From assembly GCF_003790525.1 (NCBI RefSeq), contig NZ_CP033635.1: a DNA stretch of 64,000 nt, one strand, 5' to 3'. Both the position numbers and the translations under genes were made by a program. Position 1 is the first letter of the stretch. The number at the start of each line of letters is the position of its first letter. Positions 887-54,761 of the stretch are shown in pieces. Under the pieces are notes generated by a model. That model saw nothing but the letters and a program-made list of their open reading frames with translations, ran no database searches and was not told the origin of the DNA. The stretch is from Escherichia coli (GTDB lineage Bacteria > Pseudomonadota > Gammaproteobacteria > Enterobacterales > Enterobacteriaceae).

Positions 887-923
887 TCGGCCGGATAAGA
901 CGCGGCAAGCGTCGCATCCGGCA
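887..923. repeat. REP (repetitive extragenic palindromic) element between convergent hda and yfgD
   Basis: tcggccggataagacgcggcaagcgtcgcatccggca has the typical GCCGGATAAG...CGCATCCGGC REP signature. Confidence 0.7.
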
Positions 924-25870: not shown

Positions 25871-25940
25871 GCCGGGTAGGTCTGATAAGACTGTATCAGG
25901 CATCATGGCCGGATGCGGCGTTAACGCCTTATCCGGCCAC
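25871..25940. repeat. Paired REP elements (BIME-like) between ypfH and ypfN
   Basis: gccgggtaggtctgataag...ggccggatgcggcgttaacgccttatccggccac: two REP-type units in inverted orientation. Confidence 0.7.
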
Positions 25941-43938: not shown

Positions 43939-44614
43939 TATTCGTGAAGCACACGCGCGCGGCGAACTGGCAATGTCCGTGGTTCTGCGCGCCAGCATTA
44001 TTACCCCGGAAGCTCGTGAAGTGGCTGATCTGTTGGGTTTTACCATCACCGAATGTGATGAATCGACTGCGGTAACGACGTCCGTTCCCGCCAGCGTGCC
44101 AGCCGATAAAACCGAAAGCCAGCGCATCCGCGAAACCATCATCGCCCAGCTACCGGAAGGCCAGTTTACCGAAAGCCTGGTCGCGCAGCTGATGGAAAAA
44201 GTGATGAAGGAAAAACAGTCACTGGAGCAGGGTGCAATGCAGCCGAGTTTCAAATCGGTGACCGGCAAAGGCGGCATCAAAGTGATTGATGGCAGCAGCG
44301 TCAAGTTTGGTCGTTTCGATGGCGCGGAACCGCACTGCGTAGGCTTGACTGATCTCGTGACCGGAGACGACGGCAGCAGTATGGCCGCTGGTTTCATGCA
44401 GTGGGAGAACGCCTTCTTTCCGTGGACCCTGAACTACGACGAAATCGACATGGTGCTGGAAGGGGAACTGCATGTTCGCCACGAAGGCGAAACTATGATC
44501 GCCAAAGCGGGCGATGTGATGTTTATCCCGAAAGGCTCCAGTATCGAATTTGGTACGACATCCAGCGTGAAATTCCTGTATGTCGCCTGGCCGGCTAACT
44601 GGCAATCCCTATGA
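43913..44614 (+). CDS. eutQ: Ethanolamine-utilisation cupin-domain protein
   Basis: 233-aa ORF; overlaps the eutP 3' end by 26 nt. Confidence 0.9.
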   Translation: MKKLITANDIREAHARGELAMSVVLRASIITPEAREVADLLGFTITECDESTAVTTSVPASVPADKTESQRIRETIIAQLPEGQFTESLVAQLMEKVMKEKQSLEQGAMQPSFKSVTGKGGIKVIDGSSVKFGRFDGAEPHCVGLTDLVTGDDGSSMAAGFMQWENAFFPWTLNYDEIDMVLEGELHVRHEGETMIAKAGDVMFIPKGSSIEFGTTSSVKFLYVAWPANWQSL

Positions 44615-45414
44615 AAGATTTCATCACCGAAGCATGGCTAAGAGCGAACCATACGCTCAGCGAAGGCGCAGAGATCCATCTCCCTGCGGACAGTCGCCTG
44701 ACGCCCTCTGCCCGGGAGTTACTGGAAAGCCGCCATCTGCGCATCAAGTTTATTGACGAGCAGGGCCGCCTGTTTGTTGACGATGAACAGCAGCAGCCGC
44801 AGCCCGTTCATGGGCTGACCAGTAGCGATGAACATCCGCAGGCGTGCTGCGAACTGTGCCGCCAGCCGGTGGCAAAAAAGCCGGATACGCTGACTCACCT
44901 GTCGGCGGAAAAAATGGTTGCCAAAAGCGATCCGCGCCTGGCTTTTCGCGCTGTTCTCGACAGCACCATTGCGCTGGCAGTGTGGCTGCAAATTGAACTG
45001 GCGGAACCGTGGCAGCCGTGGCTGGCGGATATCCGTTCGCGTCTTGGCAACATTATGCGTGCCGATGCGCTGGGGGAACCGCTGGCCTGCCAGGCGATTG
45101 TCGGGCTTTCTGACGAAGATCTGCATCGGCTTTCTCACCAGCCGCTGCGTTATCTCGACCACGATCATCTGGTGCCGGAAGCCAGCCACGGGCGCGATGC
45201 GGCGTTGCTAAATCTGCTACGCACCAAAGTGCGGGAAACCGAAACCGTAGCGGCGCAGGTCTTTATCACCCGCAGCTTTGAAGTATTACGCCCGGACATC
45301 TTGCAGGCGCTGAACCGCCTTTCCAGCACGGTCTACGTGATGATGATCCTGAGCGTAACGAAGCAGCCGCTAACGGTGAAGCAGATCCAACAACGACTGG
45401 GGGAAACGCAATGA
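44611..45414 (+). CDS. eutT: Ethanolamine-utilisation cob(I)alamin adenosyltransferase
   Basis: 267-aa ORF; ATGA overlap with eutQ. Confidence 0.9.
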
Positions 45415-46427
45415 TTATTGAACGTTGTCGTGAACTGGCGTTGCGAGCGCCCGCCAGAGTGGTTTTTCCGGATGCGTTAGATCAGCGTGTGCTGAAAGCT
45501 GCGCAATATTTACATCAACAAGGTCTGGCAACGCCCATTCTGGTCGCTAATCCGTTTGAACTTCGTCAGTTTGCGCTCAGTCATGGCGTAGCGATGGACG
45601 GGCTACAGGTGATTGATCCGCATGGCAACCTCGCAATGCGGGAAGAATTTGCTCATCGCTGGCTGGCCCGCGCGGGCGAAAAAACGCCGCCGGATGCGCT
45701 GGAAAAACTCACCGAACCGCTGATGTTCGCCGCCGCAATGGTCAGCGCCGGTAAAGCGGATGTCTGTATCGCGGGCAATCTCTCTTCCACGGCGAATGTG
45801 CTGCGTGCCGGATTACGCATTATTGGCTTGCAGCCAGGCTGTAAAACGCTCTCATCCATTTTCCTGATGCTGCCACAGTACAGCGGTCCGGCGTTGGGTT
45901 TTGCCGATTGCAGCGTGGTGCCACAGCCGACGGCGGCGCAGTTGGCGGATATCGCGCTTGCCAGCGCCGAAACCTGGCGCGCCATCACCGGAGAAGAACC
46001 GCGCGTGGCGATGCTGTCGTTTTCCAGCAACGGTAGTGCCCGTCACCCCTGCGTTGCCAACGTGCAGCAGGCGACAGAAATCGTCCGTGAGCGCGCACCA
46101 AAGCTGGTTGTCGATGGCGAGTTGCAGTTTGACGCCGCCTTCGTGCCGGAAGTGGCGGCGCAAAAAGCGCCTGCCAGCCCGCTACAAGGCAAGGCCAATG
46201 TGATGGTTTTTCCGTCGCTGGAAGCCGGAAATATTGGCTACAAAATCGCACAACGACTTGGCGGATATCGTGCCGTCGGGCCATTGATACAAGGACTTGC
46301 CGCGCCGATGCACGATCTCTCTCGTGGTTGTAGCGTGCAGGAAATTATCGAACTGGCGCTGGTGGCAGCTGTGCCGCGTCAGACAGAAGTGAACCGCGAA
46401 AGCAGTTTACAAACACTGGTTGAATGA
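45411..46427 (+). CDS. eutD: Ethanolamine-utilisation phosphotransacetylase
   Basis: 338-aa ORF, PTA-like; ATGA overlap with eutT. Confidence 0.9.
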
Positions 46428-46465
46428 ACGGTCCCGTTCTGGACCCTGATAAAGAGGAAAGCACA

Positions 46466-46759
46466 ATGGAAGCATTAGGAATGATCGAAACCCGGGGCCT
46501 GGTTGCACTGATTGAGGCTTCTGACGCGATGGTTAAAGCTGCGCGCGTCAAGCTGGTTGGTGTTAAGCAGATTGGCGGCGGCCTGTGTACTGCCATGGTT
46601 CGTGGTGATGTTGCAGCCTGTAAAGCCGCGACCGATGCAGGTGCCGCAGCGGCACAGCGTATCGGCGAGCTGGTATCTGTACACGTTATCCCGCGTCCGC
46701 ACGGCGACCTGGAAGAAGTGTTCCCGATCGGCCTGAAAGGCGATAGCAGCAACCTGTAA
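46466..46759 (+). CDS. eutM: Major BMC shell protein (hexamer)
   Basis: Track ORF 46424-46759; the ATG at 46466 ([28 protein letters not shown]) has an AAGAGGAAA RBS; 97 aa. Confidence 0.9.
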
Positions 46760-46865
46760 TCACCCTGTGTGACGTCGATTCGGGCGTCACGCTCTCTCCT
46801 TTTTCATTTTACCTTCTGCGGAGGGTAGGGGGAGCTTTTACCTGAAATACGCCACGGAGGCGGGT

Positions 46866-47153
46866 ATGAAACTGGCAGTCGTCACTGGACAAATTGTTTG
46901 TACCGTACGCCATCACGGACTGGCGCATGACAAATTGCTGATGGTGGAAATGATTGATCCACAAGGTAATCCTGACGGGCAATGCGCTGTCGCCATCGAC
47001 AATATTGGCGCGGGAACCGGGGAGTGGGTGTTGCTGGTGAGTGGCAGTTCCGCCCGCCAGGCGCATAAAAGCGAAACGTCACCGGTCGATCTGTGCGTGA
47101 TTGGCATCGTCGATGAGGTGGTGTCTGGCGGTCAGGTCATTTTCCACAAATAA
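46866..47153 (+). CDS. eutN: BMC vertex (pentamer) protein
   Basis: 95-aa ORF (MKLAVVTGQIVCTVRH). Confidence 0.9.
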   Translation: MKLAVVTGQIVCTVRHHGLAHDKLLMVEMIDPQGNPDGQCAVAIDNIGAGTGEWVLLVSGSSARQAHKSETSPVDLCVIGIVDEVVSGGQVIFHK

Positions 47154-47164
47154 GGCAGAACATC

Positions 47165-48568
47165 ATGAATCAACAGGATATTGAACAGGTGGTGAAAGCG
47201 GTACTGCTGAAAATGCAAAGCAGTGACACGCCGCCCGCCGCCGTTCATGAGATGGGCGTTTTCGCGTCCCTGGATGACGCCGTTGCGGCAGCCAAAGTCG
47301 CCCAGCAAGGGTTAAAAAGCGTGGCAATGCGCCAGTTAGCCATTGCTGCCATTCGTGAGGCAGGCGAAAAACACGCCAGAGATTTAGCGGAACTTGCCGT
47401 CAGTGAAACCGGCATGGGGCGCGTTGAAGATAAATTTGCCAAAAACGTCGCTCAGGCGCGCGGCACACCAGGCGTTGAGTGCCTCTCACCACAGGTGCTG
47501 ACCGGTGACAACGGCCTGACCCTGATTGAAAACGCGCCCTGGGGCGTGGTGGCTTCGGTGACGCCTTCCACTAACCCGGCGGCAACCGTAATTAACAACG
47601 CCATCAGCCTGATTGCCGCGGGCAACAGCGTCATTTTTGCCCCGCATCCGGCGGCGAAAAAAGTCTCCCAGCGGGCGATTACGCTGCTCAACCAGGCGAT
47701 TGTTGCCGCAGGCGGGCCGGAAAACTTACTGGTTACTGTGGCCAATCCGGATATCGAAACCGCGCAACGTTTGTTCAAGTTCCCGGGTATCGGCCTGCTG
47801 GTGGTGACCGGCGGCGAAGCGGTAGTGGAAGCGGCGCGTAAACACACCAATAAACGTCTGATTGCCGCAGGCGCTGGCAACCCGCCGGTAGTGGTGGATG
47901 AAACCGCCGACCTCGCCCGTGCTGCTCAGTCCATCGTCAAAGGCGCGTCTTTCGATAACAACATCATTTGTGCCGACGAAAAGGTACTGATTGTTGTTGA
48001 TAGCGTAGCCGATGAACTGATGCGTCTGATGGAAGGCCAGCATGCGGTGAAACTGACCGCAGAGCAGGCGCAGCAACTGCAATCGGTGTTGCTGAAAAAT
48101 ATCGACGAGTGCGGAAAAGGCACCGTCAGCCGTGACTGGGTTGGTCGCGATGCGGCGAAAATCGCGGCGGCAATCGGCCTTAAAGTTCCGGAACAAACGC
48201 GACTGCTGTTTGTAGAAACCACCGCAGAACATCCGTTTGCCGTGACCGAACTGATGATGCCGGTGCTGCCCGTCGTGCGCGTCGCCAACGTGGCGGATGC
48301 CATTGCGCTGGCGGTGAAACTGGAAGGCGGTTGCCACCACACGGCGGCAATGCACTCGCGCAATATCGAGAACATGAACCAGATGGCGAATGCCATTGAT
48401 ACCAGCATTTTCGTTAAGAACGGACCGTGCATTGCCGGGCTGGGGCTGGGCGGGGAAGGCTGGACCACCATGACCATCACCACGCCAACCGGTGAAGGGG
48501 TAACCAGCGCGCGGACGTTTGTCCGTCTGCGTCGCTGTGTATTAGTCGATGCGTTTCGCATTGTTTAA
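47165..48568 (+). CDS. eutE: CoA-acylating acetaldehyde dehydrogenase
   Basis: 467-aa aldehyde-dehydrogenase-family ORF with N-terminal BMC-targeting-like segment. Confidence 0.9.
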   Translation: MNQQDIEQVVKAVLLKMQSSDTPPAAVHEMGVFASLDDAVAAAKVAQQGLKSVAMRQLAIAAIREAGEKHARDLAELAVSETGMGRVEDKFAKNVAQARGTPGVECLSPQVLTGDNGLTLIENAPWGVVASVTPSTNPAATVINNAISLIAAGNSVIFAPHPAAKKVSQRAITLLNQAIVAAGGPENLLVTVANPDIETAQRLFKFPGIGLLVVTGGEAVVEAARKHTNKRLIAAGAGNPPVVVDETADLARAAQSIVKGASFDNNIICADEKVLIVVDSVADELMRLMEGQHAVKLTAEQAQQLQSVLLKNIDECGKGTVSRDWVGRDAAKIAAAIGLKVPEQTRLLFVETTAEHPFAVTELMMPVLPVVRVANVADAIALAVKLEGGCHHTAAMHSRNIENMNQMANAIDTSIFVKNGPCIAGLGLGGEGWTTMTITTPTGEGVTSARTFVRLRRCVLVDAFRIV

Positions 48569-48578
48569 GGAGTAACCG

Positions 48579-49415
48579 ATGGCGCACGATGAACAATGGC
48601 TCACCCCACGTCTGCAAACGGCGGCAACGCTGTGTAACCAGACGCCCGCCGCGACGGAATCTCCGCTGTGGCTGGGGGTGGATCTGGGCACCTGCGATGT
48701 GGTGTCGATGGTTGTCGACCGCGACGGTCTGCCGGTGGCGGTATGCCTCGACTGGGCCGATGTGGTCCGCGACGGCATCGTCTGGGATTTCTTCGGTGCG
48801 GTCACCATTGTTCGTCGCCATCTCGACACCCTCGAGCAGCAATTCGGTCGCCGTTTTAGCCATGCGGCGACCTCTTTTCCTCCAGGTACGGACCCGCGTA
48901 TTTCCATCAACGTGCTGGAGTCTGCCGGACTGGAAGTGAGCCATGTACTGGATGAGCCAACCGCAGTCGCGGATCTGCTGCAACTGGACAACGCCGGTGT
49001 AGTGGATATCGGCGGTGGCACTACTGGTATTGCCATCGTGAAAAAGGGCAAGGTGACGTACTCGGCGGATGAAGCGACCGGCGGACATCACATCTCTCTG
49101 ACTCTCGCCGGAAATCGTCGTATTTCGCTGGAAGAGGCAGAGCAGTACAAGCGCGGTCACGGTGAAGAGATTTGGCCCGCGGTGAAACCGGTGTACGAAA
49201 AAATGGCGGACATTGTCGCCCGGCATATTGAAGGGCAGGGCATTACGGATTTATGGCTGGCGGGCGGCTCTTGTATGCAACCGGGCGTGGCGGAACTGTT
49301 TCGCAAACAATTTCCGGCGTTACAGGTGCATTTACCGCAGCACAGTTTGTTTATGACCCCGCTGGCGATCGCCAGTAGCGGGCGAGAGAAAGCGGAGGGG
49401 CTATATGCAAAATGA
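48579..49415 (+). CDS. eutJ: Ethanolamine-utilisation chaperonin-like protein (actin/Hsp70 fold)
   Basis: 278-aa ORF. Confidence 0.9.
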   Translation: MAHDEQWLTPRLQTAATLCNQTPAATESPLWLGVDLGTCDVVSMVVDRDGLPVAVCLDWADVVRDGIVWDFFGAVTIVRRHLDTLEQQFGRRFSHAATSFPPGTDPRISINVLESAGLEVSHVLDEPTAVADLLQLDNAGVVDIGGGTTGIAIVKKGKVTYSADEATGGHHISLTLAGNRRISLEEAEQYKRGHGEEIWPAVKPVYEKMADIVARHIEGQGITDLWLAGGSCMQPGVAELFRKQFPALQVHLPQHSLFMTPLAIASSGREKAEGLYAK

Positions 49416-50592
49416 ATTGCAGACCGCGCTCTTTCAGGCGTTCGATACCCTGAATCTGCAACGGGTAAAAACATTTAGCGTTCCACCGGTGACGCTTTGC
49501 GGTCCGGGCGCGGTGAGCAGTTGTGGGCAGCAAGCGCAAACGCGTGGGCTGAAACATCTGTTCGTGATGGCAGACAGCTTTTTGCATCAGGCAGGGATGA
49601 CCGCCGGGCTGACACGTAGCCTGGCCGTTAAAGGTATCGCCATGACGCTCTGGCCATGTCCGGTGGGCGAACCATGCATCACCGACGTGTGTGCAGCCGT
49701 GGCGCAGTTGCGTGAATCAGGCTGTGACGGGGTGATTGCGTTTGGCGGCGGCTCGGTGCTGGATGCAGCAAAAGCCGTGGCGTTGCTGGTGACGAACCCG
49801 GATAGCACGCTGGCAGAGATGTCAGAAACCAGCGTTCTGCAACCGCGCCTGCCGTTGATTGCCATTCCGACTACCGCCGGAACCGGCTCTGAAACCACCA
49901 ACGTAACGGTGATTATCGATGCGGTGAGCGGGCGTAAGCAGGTGTTAGCCCATGCCTCGCTGATGCCGGATGTGGCGATTCTCGACGCCGCATTGACCGA
50001 AGGTGTGCCGTCGCATGTCACGGCGATGACTGGCATTGATGCGTTAACCCATGCCATTGAAGCGTACAGCGCGCTGAACGCCACACCATTTACCGACAGC
50101 CTGGCGATTGGCGCCATTGCGATGATTGGTCAATCGCTGCCGAAAGCGGTGGGCTACGGTCACGACCTTGCCGCGCGCGAGAGCATGTTGCTGGCTTCAT
50201 GTATGGCGGGAATGGCGTTTTCCAGTGCGGGGCTTGGGTTGTGCCACGCGATGGCGCATCAGCCAGGGGCGGCGCTGCATATTCCGCACGGTCTGGCGAA
50301 CGCTATGTTGCTGCCAACGGTAATGGAATTTAACCGGATGGTTTGTCGTGATCGGTTTAGTCAGATTGGCCGGGCGCTGAGAACTAAAAAATCCGACGAT
50401 CGTGACGCTATTAACGCGGTAAGTGAGCTGATTGCGGAAGTCGGGATTGGTAAACGACTGGGCGATATTGGTGCGACATCTGCGCATTACGGCGCATGGG
50501 CGCAGGCCGCGCTGGAAGATATTTGTCTGCGCAGCAACCCGCGTACCGCCAGCCTGGAGCAGATTATTGGTCTGTATGCTGCGGCGCAATAA
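49405..50592 (+). CDS. eutG: Iron-containing alcohol dehydrogenase
   Basis: 395-aa Fe-ADH-family ORF; 11-nt overlap with eutJ. Confidence 0.9.
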   Translation: MQNELQTALFQAFDTLNLQRVKTFSVPPVTLCGPGAVSSCGQQAQTRGLKHLFVMADSFLHQAGMTAGLTRSLAVKGIAMTLWPCPVGEPCITDVCAAVAQLRESGCDGVIAFGGGSVLDAAKAVALLVTNPDSTLAEMSETSVLQPRLPLIAIPTTAGTGSETTNVTVIIDAVSGRKQVLAHASLMPDVAILDAALTEGVPSHVTAMTGIDALTHAIEAYSALNATPFTDSLAIGAIAMIGQSLPKAVGYGHDLAARESMLLASCMAGMAFSSAGLGLCHAMAHQPGAALHIPHGLANAMLLPTVMEFNRMVCRDRFSQIGRALRTKKSDDRDAINAVSELIAEVGIGKRLGDIGATSAHYGAWAQAALEDICLRSNPRTASLEQIIGLYAAAQ

Positions 50593-50610
50593 AAGTGTAC
50601 GGACAGTCCC

Positions 50611-50648
50611 CTCGCCCCTTTGGGGAGAGGGTTAGGGTGAGGGGAACA
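50611..50648. repeat. G-rich 38-bp intergenic repeat, copy 2 (CTCGCCCCTTTGGGGAGAGGGTTAGGGTGAGGGGAACA)
   Basis: 36/38 identical to 37218-37255; followed by partial inverted copies (ccctcacccc at 50674-50683, gtgaggg at 50701-50707) in the 169-bp eutG-eutH spacer. Confidence 0.6.
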
Positions 50649-50761
50649 GAGTCGCTCCGGTGCAAACAATTACCCTCACCCCGGTCCCTCGGCTTCCAGA
50701 GTGAGGGAAAAACCCACTTTCAGCATTGGCAATAAATAACAACTAACAGGGAGTAAAGGCG

Positions 50762-51988: not shown

Positions 51989-53388
51989 ACACTCGCCAGC
52001 TACTGAGCGTCGGTATCGATATCGGCACCACCACCACCCAGGTGATTTTCTCCCACCTGGAGCTGGTTAACCGTGCGGCGGTGTCGCAGGTGCCGCGCTA
52101 CGAATTCATCAAACGCGAAATTAGCTGGCAAAGCCCGGTGTTCTTTACCCCTGTCGATAAACAGGGTGGTTTAAAAGAAGCGGAACTGAAAACCTTAATC
52201 CTGGATCAATATCAGGCTGCGGGCATTGCGCCGGAAAGTGTTGATTCTGGTGCCATCATCATCACCGGTGAAAGCGCGAAAACCCGCAACGCTCGCCCGG
52301 CGGTGATGACGCTCTCCCAGTCGCTGGGCGATTTTGTCGTCGCCAGCGCCGGGCCGCATCTCGAATCCGTGATCGCCGGTCACGGTGCCGGGGCGCAAAC
52401 TCTTTCTGAACAACGGCTGTGTCGGGTACTGAATATCGATATCGGCGGTGGCACTGCGAACTACGCCCTGTTCGATGCCGGAAAAATCAGCGGCACCGCC
52501 TGCCTCAACGTCGGCGGTCGCCTGCTGGAAACCGACAGCCAGGGGCGCGTGGTTTACGCTCATAAACCGGGGCAGATGATTGTGGATGAGTGCTTCGGCG
52601 CAGGCACTGACGCCCGTTCGCTGACCGGCGCGCAGCTGGTGCAGGTTACCCGCCGGATGGCAGAGCTGATTGTCGAAGTGATTGACGGAACGCTTTCGCC
52701 GCTCGCGCAGGCATTGATGCAAACCGGTTTGCTGCCCGTAGGTGTTACGCCCGAAATCATTACGCTTTCTGGCGGCGTTGGCGAATGTTATCGCCACCAG
52801 CCCGCCGACCCGTTCTGTTTTGCCGATATTGGCCCGCTTCTGGCAACGGCGCTGCATGACCATCCGCGCCTGCGTGAGATGAACGTGCAGTTTCCGGCGC
52901 AAACCGTGCGCGCCACGGTGATTGGCGCGGGTGCACATACCCTTTCGCTCTCTGGCAGCACAATCTGGCTGGAGGGCGTACAACTGCCGCTGCGCAACTT
53001 GCCGGTGGCGATCCCAATTGATGAAAAGGATCTGGTGAGTGCCTGGCAACAGGCGCTGATTCAGCTGGATCTTGATCCTAAAACTGACGCGTACGTGCTG
53101 GCGCTTCCCGCCTCGCTGCCTGTGCGTTACGCCGCGGTACTGACGGTCATCAACGCGTTGGTCGATTTCGTCGCGCGTTTTCCGAATCCGCATCCCCTGC
53201 TGGTGGTGGCCGGGCAGGACTTTGGTAAAGCTCTGGGCATGTTGTTGCGCCCACAGCTACAACAACTCCCGTTGGCAGTCATTGACGAAGTGATTGTCCG
53301 CGCGGGGGACTATATCGACATTGGTACGCCTCTTTTTGGCGGATCGGTTGTGCCGGTGACGGTGAAATCACTCGCATTTCCTTCCTGA
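51985..53388 (+). CDS. eutA: Ethanolamine ammonia-lyase reactivating factor
   Basis: 467-aa ORF; ATGA overlap with eutH. Confidence 0.9.
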   Translation: MNTRQLLSVGIDIGTTTTQVIFSHLELVNRAAVSQVPRYEFIKREISWQSPVFFTPVDKQGGLKEAELKTLILDQYQAAGIAPESVDSGAIIITGESAKTRNARPAVMTLSQSLGDFVVASAGPHLESVIAGHGAGAQTLSEQRLCRVLNIDIGGGTANYALFDAGKISGTACLNVGGRLLETDSQGRVVYAHKPGQMIVDECFGAGTDARSLTGAQLVQVTRRMAELIVEVIDGTLSPLAQALMQTGLLPVGVTPEIITLSGGVGECYRHQPADPFCFADIGPLLATALHDHPRLREMNVQFPAQTVRATVIGAGAHTLSLSGSTIWLEGVQLPLRNLPVAIPIDEKDLVSAWQQALIQLDLDPKTDAYVLALPASLPVRYAAVLTVINALVDFVARFPNPHPLLVVAGQDFGKALGMLLRPQLQQLPLAVIDEVIVRAGDYIDIGTPLFGGSVVPVTVKSLAFPS

Positions 53389-53399
53389 GGGAACGACTT

Positions 53400-54761
53400 A
53401 TGAAACTAAAGACCACATTGTTCGGCAATGTATATCAGTTTAAGGATGTAAAAGAGGTGCTGGCTAAAGCCAACGAACTGCGTTCGGGGGATGTGCTGGC
53501 GGGCGTTGCTGCGGCAAGCTCACAGGAGCGCGTGGCGGCAAAGCAGGTGTTGTCGGAAATGACCGTAGCGGACATCCGCAATAATCCGGTGATTGCCTAT
53601 GAAGATGACTGCGTGACGCGGCTGATTCAGGACGATGTTAACGAAACGGCCTACAACCAGATTAAAAACTGGAGCATCAGCGAACTGCGTGAGTATGTGC
53701 TGAGCGATGAAACCAGCGTGGACGACATTGCCTTTACCCGCAAAGGGCTGACCTCGGAAGTGGTAGCGGCGGTAGCGAAGATTTGCTCCAACGCGGACCT
53801 GATCTACGGCGCGAAGAAAATGCCGGTGATCAAAAAGGCCAATACCACCATCGGTATTCCGGGCACCTTTAGCGCCCGCTTGCAGCCAAACGATACCCGT
53901 GACGATGTGCAAAGTATCGCCGCGCAAATCTACGAAGGGCTTTCCTTCGGGGTGGGCGATGCGGTGATCGGCGTTAACCCGGTGACTGACGACGTGGAAA
54001 ACTTAAGCCGCGTGTTGGATACCATCTATGGCGTGATCGACAAATTCAACATCCCAACTCAGGGCTGCGTACTGGCGCACGTCACCACCCAGATCGAAGC
54101 GATTCGTCGCGGCGCACCGGGCGGGCTGATTTTCCAGAGTATTTGCGGCAGCGAAAAAGGGCTGAAAGAGTTTGGCGTGGAGCTGGCGATGCTCGACGAA
54201 GCGCGCGCAGTGGGTGCAGAGTTTAACCGTATCGCCGGGGAAAACTGCCTCTACTTCGAAACCGGACAAGGTTCGGCGCTGTCCGCTGGCGCTAACTTCG
54301 GCGCTGACCAGGTGACGATGGAAGCGCGTAACTATGGGCTGGCGCGTCATTACGATCCGTTTATCGTCAACACCGTGGTCGGTTTTATTGGGCCGGAGTA
54401 TCTCTACAACGACCGCCAGATTATCCGCGCGGGCTTAGAAGATCACTTTATGGGCAAGCTGAGCGGCATCTCTATGGGCTGTGACTGCTGCTACACCAAC
54501 CACGCTGACGCTGACCAGAACCTCAACGAAAACCTGATGATCCTGCTCGCCACCGCAGGCTGTAACTACATCATGGGGATGCCGCTGGGTGATGACATCA
54601 TGCTCAACTACCAGACTACGGCCTTCCACGACACCGCCACTGTGCGTCAGTTACTCAACCTGCGCCCGTCACCGGAGTTTGAACGCTGGCTGGAAAGCAT
54701 GGGCATTATGGCAAACGGTCGCCTGACCAAACGGGCGGGCGATCCGTCACTGTTCTTCTGA
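53400..54761 (+). CDS. eutB: Ethanolamine ammonia-lyase large subunit
   Basis: 453-aa ORF starting 11 bp after the eutA stop. Confidence 0.95.
   Translation: MKLKTTLFGNVYQFKDVKEVLAKANELRSGDVLAGVAAASSQERVAAKQVLSEMTVADIRNNPVIAYEDDCVTRLIQDDVNETAYNQIKNWSISELREYVLSDETSVDDIAFTRKGLTSEVVAAVAKICSNADLIYGAKKMPVIKKANTTIGIPGTFSARLQPNDTRDDVQSIAAQIYEGLSFGVGDAVIGVNPVTDDVENLSRVLDTIYGVIDKFNIPTQGCVLAHVTTQIEAIRRGAPGGLIFQSICGSEKGLKEFGVELAMLDEARAVGAEFNRIAGENCLYFETGQGSALSAGANFGADQVTMEARNYGLARHYDPFIVNTVVGFIGPEYLYNDRQIIRAGLEDHFMGKLSGISMGCDCCYTNHADADQNLNENLMILLATAGCNYIMGMPLGDDIMLNYQTTAFHDTATVRQLLNLRPSPEFERWLESMGIMANGRLTKRAGDPSLFF

Follow-up and report, generated by a model that had tools for sequence, protein, structure and literature searches.

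The 106-nt spacer between eutM and eutN in the eut operon of Escherichia coli is supported, by folding and by comparison among genera, as a real structured RNA element under purifying selection. It has two hairpins, is conserved above the neutral level, and, as published protein values support, lies exactly between the genes for the most abundant (EutM) and the least abundant (EutN) shell protein. In several other genera the same gap is occupied by REP elements. The spacer may be a cis-acting 3′ protective or insulating stem-loop module in the eut polycistronic mRNA, of the type represented by the REP of malE-malF, and we give this reading a probability of approximately 45%. As such it would block exonucleases, would mark off an upstream segment after cleavage, and would uncouple eutN from eutM.

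The window, i.e. the whole 64-kb stretch of DNA that was analysed, contains around eutM and eutN the E. coli eut operon, as determined from open reading frames and RefSeq annotation. The 730 bases from eutM to eutN are present in 5,406 of 5,426 complete E. coli genomes and are 100% identical in strain CFSAN061771. The spacer itself is kept at 90% identity or more in approximately 5,400 of the 5,426 genomes and occupies one place per genome, and an origin as a dispersed repeat was therefore rejected. The earlier note on this DNA gave the exact coordinates of the spacer and described the eut genes as mostly overlapping or closely packed, which agrees with the other gaps of −26 to +45 nt. It missed a second exception, the 169 nt between eutG and eutH (50593–50761); eutN and eutH are the only genes found more than 45 nt from their upstream eut neighbour.

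The spacer element has no annotation in MG1655, and a cmscan search of positions 44000–50000 gave no Rfam match in 46760–46865 at E = 10 or below. A scan and inspection by eye revealed no internal sigma-70 promoter in the spacer on either strand, and there is no plus-strand open reading frame starting with ATG, GTG or TTG inside it. A minus-strand open reading frame (MKKERA) was considered and rejected, as it is not kept in Citrobacter. No published description of the element was found in the searchable literature, which misses many subscription papers.

Several other features of the operon were observed. The eutG-eutH spacer contains a G+C-rich palindromic dispersed repeat (CCCCTCGCCCCTTTGGGGAGAGGGTTAGGGTGAGGGG...), which the median E. 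coli genome has at 16 places. The version present here is shared at 80% or more by only 303 genomes, and K-12 has 216 nt at this position; the small number of genomes sharing it indicates that, in contrast to the eutM-eutN spacer, the eutG-eutH spacer varies among strains. An EutM of 111 aa would result from an in-frame ATG at 46424, which overlaps the stop codon of eutD (ATGA, 46424–46427). The RefSeq eutM start is the ATG at 46466 (97 aa), which has a better Shine-Dalgarno sequence, AAGAGGAAAG; the LF82 paper uses the long form, with 335 bp for eutM (PMC6379400). At the eutA-eutB junction (53388–53400) the genes are 11 nt apart, and the strain of the window thus does not have the CPZ-55 cryptic prophage that interrupts the operon of K-12 MG1655 here.

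Table 1. Positions of the features of the eutM-eutN region and of REP cores in the window
Feature	Position	Strand	Basis or remark
eutM CDS, 97 aa, major hexameric shell protein	46466–46759	+	ORF and translation; RefSeq annotation of identical DNA; upstream cistron
eutM-eutN spacer, 106 nt	46760–46865	+	eutM stop TAA at 46757–46759; eutN ATG at 46866
Hairpin 1: 10-bp stem GUGUGACGUC / GGCGUCACGC, loop GAUUCG	46767–46792 (arms 46767–46776 and 46783–46792)	+	folding, alignment
Hairpin 2, two-part	46794–46834	+	folding, RNAalifold consensus
Hairpin 2, outer stem CUCUCCU / GGGGGAG	46794–46800 / 46828–46834	+	fold
Hairpin 2, inner stem UACCUUC / GAGGGUA	46810–46816 / 46821–46827	+	fold
Hairpin 2, apical loop UGCG (4 nt) and U-rich 9-nt internal loop	internal loop 46801–46809	+	fold
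A/U-rich linker CUUUUACCUGAAAUA, unpaired	46835–46849	+	minimum-free-energy and consensus folds
eutN translation-initiation region	46850–46865	+	consensus fold
Mini-hairpin CGCC-ACGGA-GGCG, 4 bp	46850–46862	+	half-covers Shine-Dalgarno GGAGG at 46856–46860
eutN CDS, 95 aa, pentameric vertex protein	46866–47153	+	ORF; RefSeq annotation; downstream cistron
REP-core sites in the window	890–902, 25925–25937; with one mismatch, 21223 and 39540		

The plus strand of the spacer folds with −43.0 kcal/mol (z −3.17 relative to dinucleotide shuffles), and the fold of the minus strand is unremarkable (z −0.98). Both hairpins are non-random. Hairpin 1 begins 7 nt past the eutM stop codon and has −17.4 kcal/mol with a z of −4.28, a stability that none of 200 dinucleotide shuffles equalled. 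The hairpin described in the earlier note (gtgacg-tcgattcgg-cgtcac) is real and is the core of this longer, 10-bp stem. The pyrimidine tract and G-rich segment described there are also present (46794–46800 and 46821–46834), and since they pair with each other to form hairpin 2 (−17.3 kcal/mol, z −2.39, pairing probabilities 0.5–1.0), they are not separate features.

The motif GTGACGYC-N3-25-GRCGTCAC occurs once in the 64-kb window (0.00 expected). The GUGACG/CGUCAC core of hairpin 1 is invariant in 21 aligned class-A sequences, which come from Escherichia, Citrobacter, Klebsiella spallanzanii, Buttiauxella and Entomohabitans, while the loop ranges from 5 to 23 nt; Yokenella has a compensated variant with a 4-nt loop. 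Changes on both sides of the stem are seen in the two outer pairs and in column pair 26–51 of alignment A1. A loop that varies from 4 to 23 nt around an invariant core points to a hairpin rather than a DNA site of fixed spacing, and this variation in the distance between arms led to the rejection of a binding site on double-stranded DNA, CRP-like or of another kind, at the inverted repeat. Pairing of the 5′ arm with a CGUCAC in eutN codons 5–7 was also rejected, as this hexamer is found in REP-class loci as well and is missing in Buttiauxella.

Positions 46793–46865 (73 nt) are 92–95% identical between E. coli and four species of the C. freundii complex. The neutral yardstick, approximately 530 four-fold degenerate sites of eutD, eutM, eutN and eutE, gives 51–56% identity, and the difference is highly significant (Fisher p = 1e-11 to 1e-13). 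In an alignment of the 22 spacers that carry hairpin 1, 90.9% of the cells form standard pairs, as opposed to 45–59% when the partner columns are slid by 1–3, and 11 pairs show changes on both sides; the observed covariation was reached by none of 500 shuffles. The RNAalifold consensus contains hairpin 1, the two stems of hairpin 2 and also the mini-hairpin. Among the Escherichia sequences compared, the spacer has six variable sites; the outer stem of hairpin 2 has two of these, and the other four are unpaired. The hairpin to which the earlier note drew attention is conserved, with compensatory changes in its stem.

For the inner stem of hairpin 2, three compensated versions are seen (ACCUUC/GAGGGU, GUUCUC/GAGAGC and GCCCUC/GAGGGC). 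In the linker, UUUUACCUGAA is invariant in 16 of 16 two-hairpin sequences, and the linkers of Buttiauxella and Entomohabitans retain ACCUGAA or AUCUGAA; judged from sequence and fold, the linker could serve as a site for an endonuclease or for protein binding. A generic hairpin or exonuclease block would need less sequence conservation than is seen in the linker UUUUACCUGAAAUA and in the outer stem and U-rich internal loop of hairpin 2. Such strong conservation hints at an additional, sequence-specific partner, which could be CsrA, acting at two CGGAGG motifs, or else RNase E, Hfq or ribosomal protein S1. By contrast, the whole hairpin 2 and linker region is dispensable in genera that have REPs in its place.

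A scan with one genome per species gave 48 eutN loci, 42 of which have eutM upstream. The eutM-eutN gap is 52–211 nt in all 42, including those of Pseudomonas and Rhodocyclaceae, and is always longer than the eutN-eutE gap, which is 10–15 nt in Enterobacteriaceae. Among 37 distinct sequences, the first 50 nt past the eutM stop codon have a median of −17.4 kcal/mol, with a hairpin that starts 1–12 nt after the stop. The GUGACG hairpin, with or without hairpin 2, is found in Escherichia, many Citrobacter, K. spallanzanii, Buttiauxella and Entomohabitans, and as a variant in Yokenella. REP elements take its place in Salmonella, Klebsiella species other than K. spallanzanii, C. koseri, C. amalonaticus, Pseudocitrobacter and Pluralibacter, and these spacers retain only the approximately 12 nt that adjoin the ribosome-binding site. 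The gaps of Pseudomonas and Rhodocyclaceae have unrelated G+C-rich hairpins. What is maintained in all these loci is a long gap that starts with a stable hairpin and not a particular sequence or U-tract. In Salmonella, with which the earlier note proposed a comparison, a hairpin opens the gap too, but it is a REP.

The E. coli spacer has neither the REP consensus (GCCGGATAAGRCG...CGYC..ATCCGGC) nor dispersed copies; the Salmonella, Klebsiella and C. koseri spacers do qualify as REPs. REP cores (GCCGGATAAGRCG) are found four times in the window (0.15 expected), but none is in the eut operon. Three assemblies labelled Gemelliphila palaticanis, Prolixibacteraceae bacterium JC049 and Caballeronia mineralivorans have EutN on tiny contigs of 269–466 bp that is 87–100% identical to that of E. 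coli; these look like enterobacterial contamination.

Published expression values are available for strains with essentially this spacer: that of K-12 MG1655 is 100% identical to the window, and that of LF82 differs at one unpaired base (46765). In strain W3110 grown on ethanolamine and B12, the relative iBAQ values are EutQ 100, EutM 96, EutL 39, EutB 37, EutE 27, EutC 24, EutD 10 and EutN 1 (PMC11334477). The EutM:EutN protein ratio in W3110 is thus approximately 96:1, with the qualification that iBAQ is imprecise for a protein of 95 aa (PMC11334477). A literature search for Term-seq, absolute RNA-seq or CsrA data covering eutM and eutN produced one usable table, the LF82 transcript values. 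In minimal medium and in bile salts, respectively, the RPKM values are 108 and 357 for eutD, 55 and 177 for eutM, 5 and 62 for eutN, 14 and 149 for eutE, 13 and 147 for eutJ, and 106 and 514 for eutH (PMC6379400). This single data set, which has per-gene values only, gives an eutM:eutN mRNA ratio of 3–11:1, and under induction eutH, eutB and eutC mRNAs are above eutM (PMC6379400). The transcript step that the earlier note expected across the spacer is therefore present, in that eutM mRNA exceeds eutN mRNA 3–11-fold, but with recovery of the genes past eutN it amounts to a local dip. As an mRNA difference of 3-fold is too small to produce a protein difference of approximately 100-fold, most of the ratio must be set at eutN translation or EutN stability.

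Predicted opening energies at the ribosome-binding regions are 14.7 kcal/mol for eutN, 6.0 for eutM, the lowest in the operon, and 7.1 for eutE. In 38 of 38 Enterobacteriaceae loci, with any type of spacer, the eutN value (9.1–18.1) exceeds those of eutM (4.6–9.2) and eutE (4.8–10.4 kcal/mol). Hairpins 1 and 2 together contribute only approximately 3 kcal/mol to the eutN value. The mini-hairpin over the Shine-Dalgarno sequence is part of the RNAalifold consensus, yet at −6.5 kcal/mol it is no better than shuffles (z −0.15). The consensus fold of the eutN start from −25 to +75 is weak (−7.4 kcal/mol), with almost no covariation support. The accessibility argument for weak eutN translation, which depends on these models, is thus a soft one. 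A long-range helix in which the eutN ribosome-binding site pairs with bases just past the eutM stop codon, and which could have been a coupling switch, is present in the E. coli minimum-free-energy fold; it was rejected, since it takes another register in Citrobacter, is not in the consensus, and with a wider sequence context has a probability of no more than 0.03. Codons 12–20 might occlude the eutN start, with a probability of approximately 0.5 in E. coli; this was rejected as well, as neither consensus nor covariation supports it.

Two further observations concern the start of eutN. The first approximately 36 bases (46866–46901; ATGAAACTGGCAGTCGTCACAGGACAAATYGTTTGT) are near-invariant at synonymous positions across most Enterobacteriaceae genera, which suggests that the 5′ coding region is under constraint beyond that of the protein sequence. 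In loci of the C. freundii complex, a six-codon open reading frame (ATG CCA CGG AGG CGS GTA TGA, MPRRRV) overlies the eutN Shine-Dalgarno sequence and has its stop codon in the ATGA of the eutN start. It is possibly a coupling mini-ORF in that complex; the E. coli equivalent begins with ACG, not ATG.

How the spacer might act can be looked at in several ways. The earlier note suggested a partial attenuator or a processing site. In a partial intrinsic terminator, hairpin 1 with UCUCUCCUUUUU and/or hairpin 2 with CUUUUACC would halt some RNA polymerases before eutN. The stem of hairpin 1 is G+C-rich (6 of 10 bp are G-C), as in intrinsic terminators, and U-containing tracts follow both hairpins. 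A permissive scan flagged hairpin 1 with its tail as terminator-like, but the same scan gives 5 sites against 2.1 expected by chance. The tract 3′ of hairpin 1, UCUCUCCU, has just 4 U in its first 8 bases and is not a conserved, uninterrupted U-tract, and the stem of hairpin 2 that would have to terminate has the 9-nt internal loop above it. Buttiauxella alone has a better tract after hairpin 1, UUUCUUUA (UUUCUUU); no U-tract follows the hairpin in Yokenella, Entomohabitans or the REP-type spacers of Salmonella and Klebsiella, which argues that the part common to all taxa is a stable hairpin and not a terminator. The uninduced LF82 values for eutN, eutE and eutJ, all well below eutM, are what termination would give. 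On induction, however, eutE and eutJ nearly equal eutM, with eutH, eutB and eutC higher, and the downstream EutE, EutB, EutC and EutL proteins still amount to 24–39% of the EutQ reference, compared with 96% for EutM. An attenuator would depress all downstream genes, yet eutE recovers, and a simple attenuator consequently does not explain the ratio; the earlier note's view that the element could set a high-eutM/low-eutN stoichiometry is supported by the position of the spacer at the exact boundary but not as regards this mechanism. Termination as the main role is thus unlikely. Somewhat less unlikely is a translational throttle or insulator for eutN, whereby coupling to eutM would be broken, the ribosome-binding site would lie in a poorly accessible fold, and effects on mRNA would follow secondarily from low ribosome occupancy. 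Such a role and the protective module overlap and are not mutually exclusive. The protein ratio far above the mRNA ratio fits such a throttle, as do the opening energies in all 38 loci, the Shine-Dalgarno sequence half-buried in a conserved mini-hairpin, and the unusual distance of eutN from its upstream neighbour, which only eutH shares. Set against these are the weak consensus fold almost devoid of covariation, a mini-hairpin no more stable than shuffles, the failure of the long-range helix to appear in the consensus, the small contribution of hairpins 1 and 2, the imprecision of iBAQ for so short a protein, and a GGAGG five bases from the AUG, which by sequence is a strong site.

The spacer might alternatively serve, through hairpin 2, the U-rich internal loop and the linker, as a sequence-specific binding platform for a protein such as Hfq, or CsrA at GGA motifs (46820–46822 and 46856–46858), or give rise to a processed sRNA from the eutM 3′ end with a C/U-rich seed. 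Primary-sequence conservation over 73 nt above structural need would be explained in this way; a U-rich tract adjoins a hairpin that itself precedes a UUUU, and the two CGGAGG motifs are 36 nt apart with one in a hairpin loop. But the GGA motifs fall trivially within Shine-Dalgarno-like runs, the predicted fold has the C/U ‘seed’ in a paired state, REP-bearing genera dispense with the region, Rfam gives no match even at E = 10, and no paper in the searchable literature was found that ties CsrA or an sRNA to the spacer. A platform or sRNA is quite improbable. More improbable still, and already disfavoured, is an absence of function, i.e. a leftover of operon assembly with a chance fold. The spacers do vary widely in length and content among genera (52–211 nt), REP elements come and go, and both paired E. 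coli polymorphisms are in the outer stem of hairpin 2; nevertheless, conservation far over four-fold sites (p down to 1e-13), compensatory changes in the stems, fold z-scores of −3 to −4, retention in nearly all E. coli genomes, and a hairpin-initiated long gap in 42 of 42 loci speak against it. A broader possibility, which we regard as doubtful, is that the gap is a dedicated stoichiometry-setting RNA module with a selected folded barrier that differs by genus, in which the conservation of hairpin 2 and the linker would stem from a specific RNA-binding partner or a processed regulatory RNA.

The protective or insulating stem-loop module preferred here would work as follows. Hairpin 1, with hairpin 2 as a backup, would form a stable 3′ boundary right behind eutM. 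An endonucleolytic cut, made either in the A/U-rich linker or within the eutN segment with its poor translation, would be followed by 3′-to-5′ exonucleolytic decay that the hairpins would stop. By blocking exonucleases, the hairpins would allow the eutM-containing upstream segment to outlive the eutN segment, which would decay faster. The 106-nt folded, untranslated gap would in addition separate eutN initiation from the heavy ribosome traffic on eutM, leaving eutN reliant on its own, predicted poorly accessible ribosome-binding site. The processing-site half of the earlier note's idea is a plausible hypothesis.

Here the more abundant cistron does have, at its 3′ boundary, a stem-loop that is both stable and conserved, and the REPs in the exact same gap of other genera may be taken as a functional substitution that favours the stabilizer. 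REP stem-loops are the textbook 3′ stabilizer, as in malEFG (summarized in PMC5927463). Less stable cistrons carry fewer ribosomes (PMC5927463), which fits the difference in opening energy between eutN and eutM. Against the stabilizer, induced eutM (177 RPKM) is not above eutD (357) or eutH (514), and the pattern is a dip at eutN rather than a clearly stabilized upstream block. Furthermore, the sequence conservation of hairpin 2 and the linker (92–95%) exceeds the need of a generic exonuclease block, and REPs insert at any extragenic space, so that their presence here may reflect opportunity and not function. REP hairpins 15 nt or less from a stop codon reportedly lower expression of the upstream gene, a finding attributed to Liang, Rudd and Deutscher (2015), and this would oppose a high level of EutM.

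Microcompartment shells contain many hexamers and need very few vertex pentamers. Loss of EutN leads to elongated, unclosed structures (PMC12487888), and a preprint describes a changed compartment morphology when pduN, the EutN equivalent, was moved within its operon (bioRxiv 10.64898/2026.05.01.722140). If the spacer helps to fix the EutM:EutN ratio, it would be a small natural element with which expression inside an operon can be tuned. This would matter for the rebuilding of Eut compartments in E. coli, which is usually done with the spacer omitted or changed. The short list of intercistronic stabilizer elements would then also gain a non-REP example. Should the gap be a dedicated module, the dosage of the vertex protein would be insulated from that of the shell protein, giving control of compartment closure and shape. 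Even if a role in the ratio proves false, there is still a clean, conserved non-coding element that current annotation ignores.

Among known systems, the closest is the REP/BIME paradigm of malE-malF (PMC5927463). In both cases a stable stem-loop lies in an intra-operon gap right after the cistron that needs the most abundance, a good U-tract is not needed, and the same eut gap holds true REPs in Salmonella, most Klebsiella loci, C. koseri and C. amalonaticus. The E. coli element differs in being single-copy, in having its own invariant GUGACG/CGUCAC core instead of the REP consensus, and in its second, sequence-conserved hairpin. Dar and Sorek (2018; PMC5927463) describe protective 3′ structures, which are similar in that a conserved structure separates a more abundant cistron from a less abundant one, the weaker cistron is predicted to be poorly translated, and sequence conservation is above that of wobble positions. 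Most of theirs, however, are inside the downstream coding sequence, whereas the eut element has a dedicated spacer. The eut operon was not expressed in their data, and ‘eut’ appears 0 times in PMC5927463.

Enterococcus faecalis also has hairpins within an ethanolamine-utilization cluster that modulate downstream genes, under control of the ANTAR protein EutV, but these are true Rho-independent terminators that follow dual hexaloop hairpins which bind EutV (PMC5821096). The E. coli spacer, by comparison, has loops of 4–23 nt, a poor U-tract and no Rfam match, and in enterobacteria eut is under the control of EutR, which acts at the promoter. An ANTAR target of the EutV/NasR type was rejected, as only in Escherichia does hairpin 1 have a 6-nt loop, hairpin 2 has a loop of 4 nt, and no Rfam match was obtained at E = 10 or below. 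Processing of the papBA type, where RNase E cuts beside a hairpin (cited in PMC5927463), is resembled in the A/U-rich single-stranded linker near stable hairpins and in the different abundance of the flanking cistrons. It should be pointed out that in pap the downstream cistron is the stabilized one, and that cleavage in eut is putative. The eutM-eutN spacer is therefore best described as a solid candidate for a conserved, unannotated regulatory RNA, which is REP-like in its proposed role but is not itself a REP, an ANTAR target, a member of an Rfam family or a convincing intrinsic terminator.
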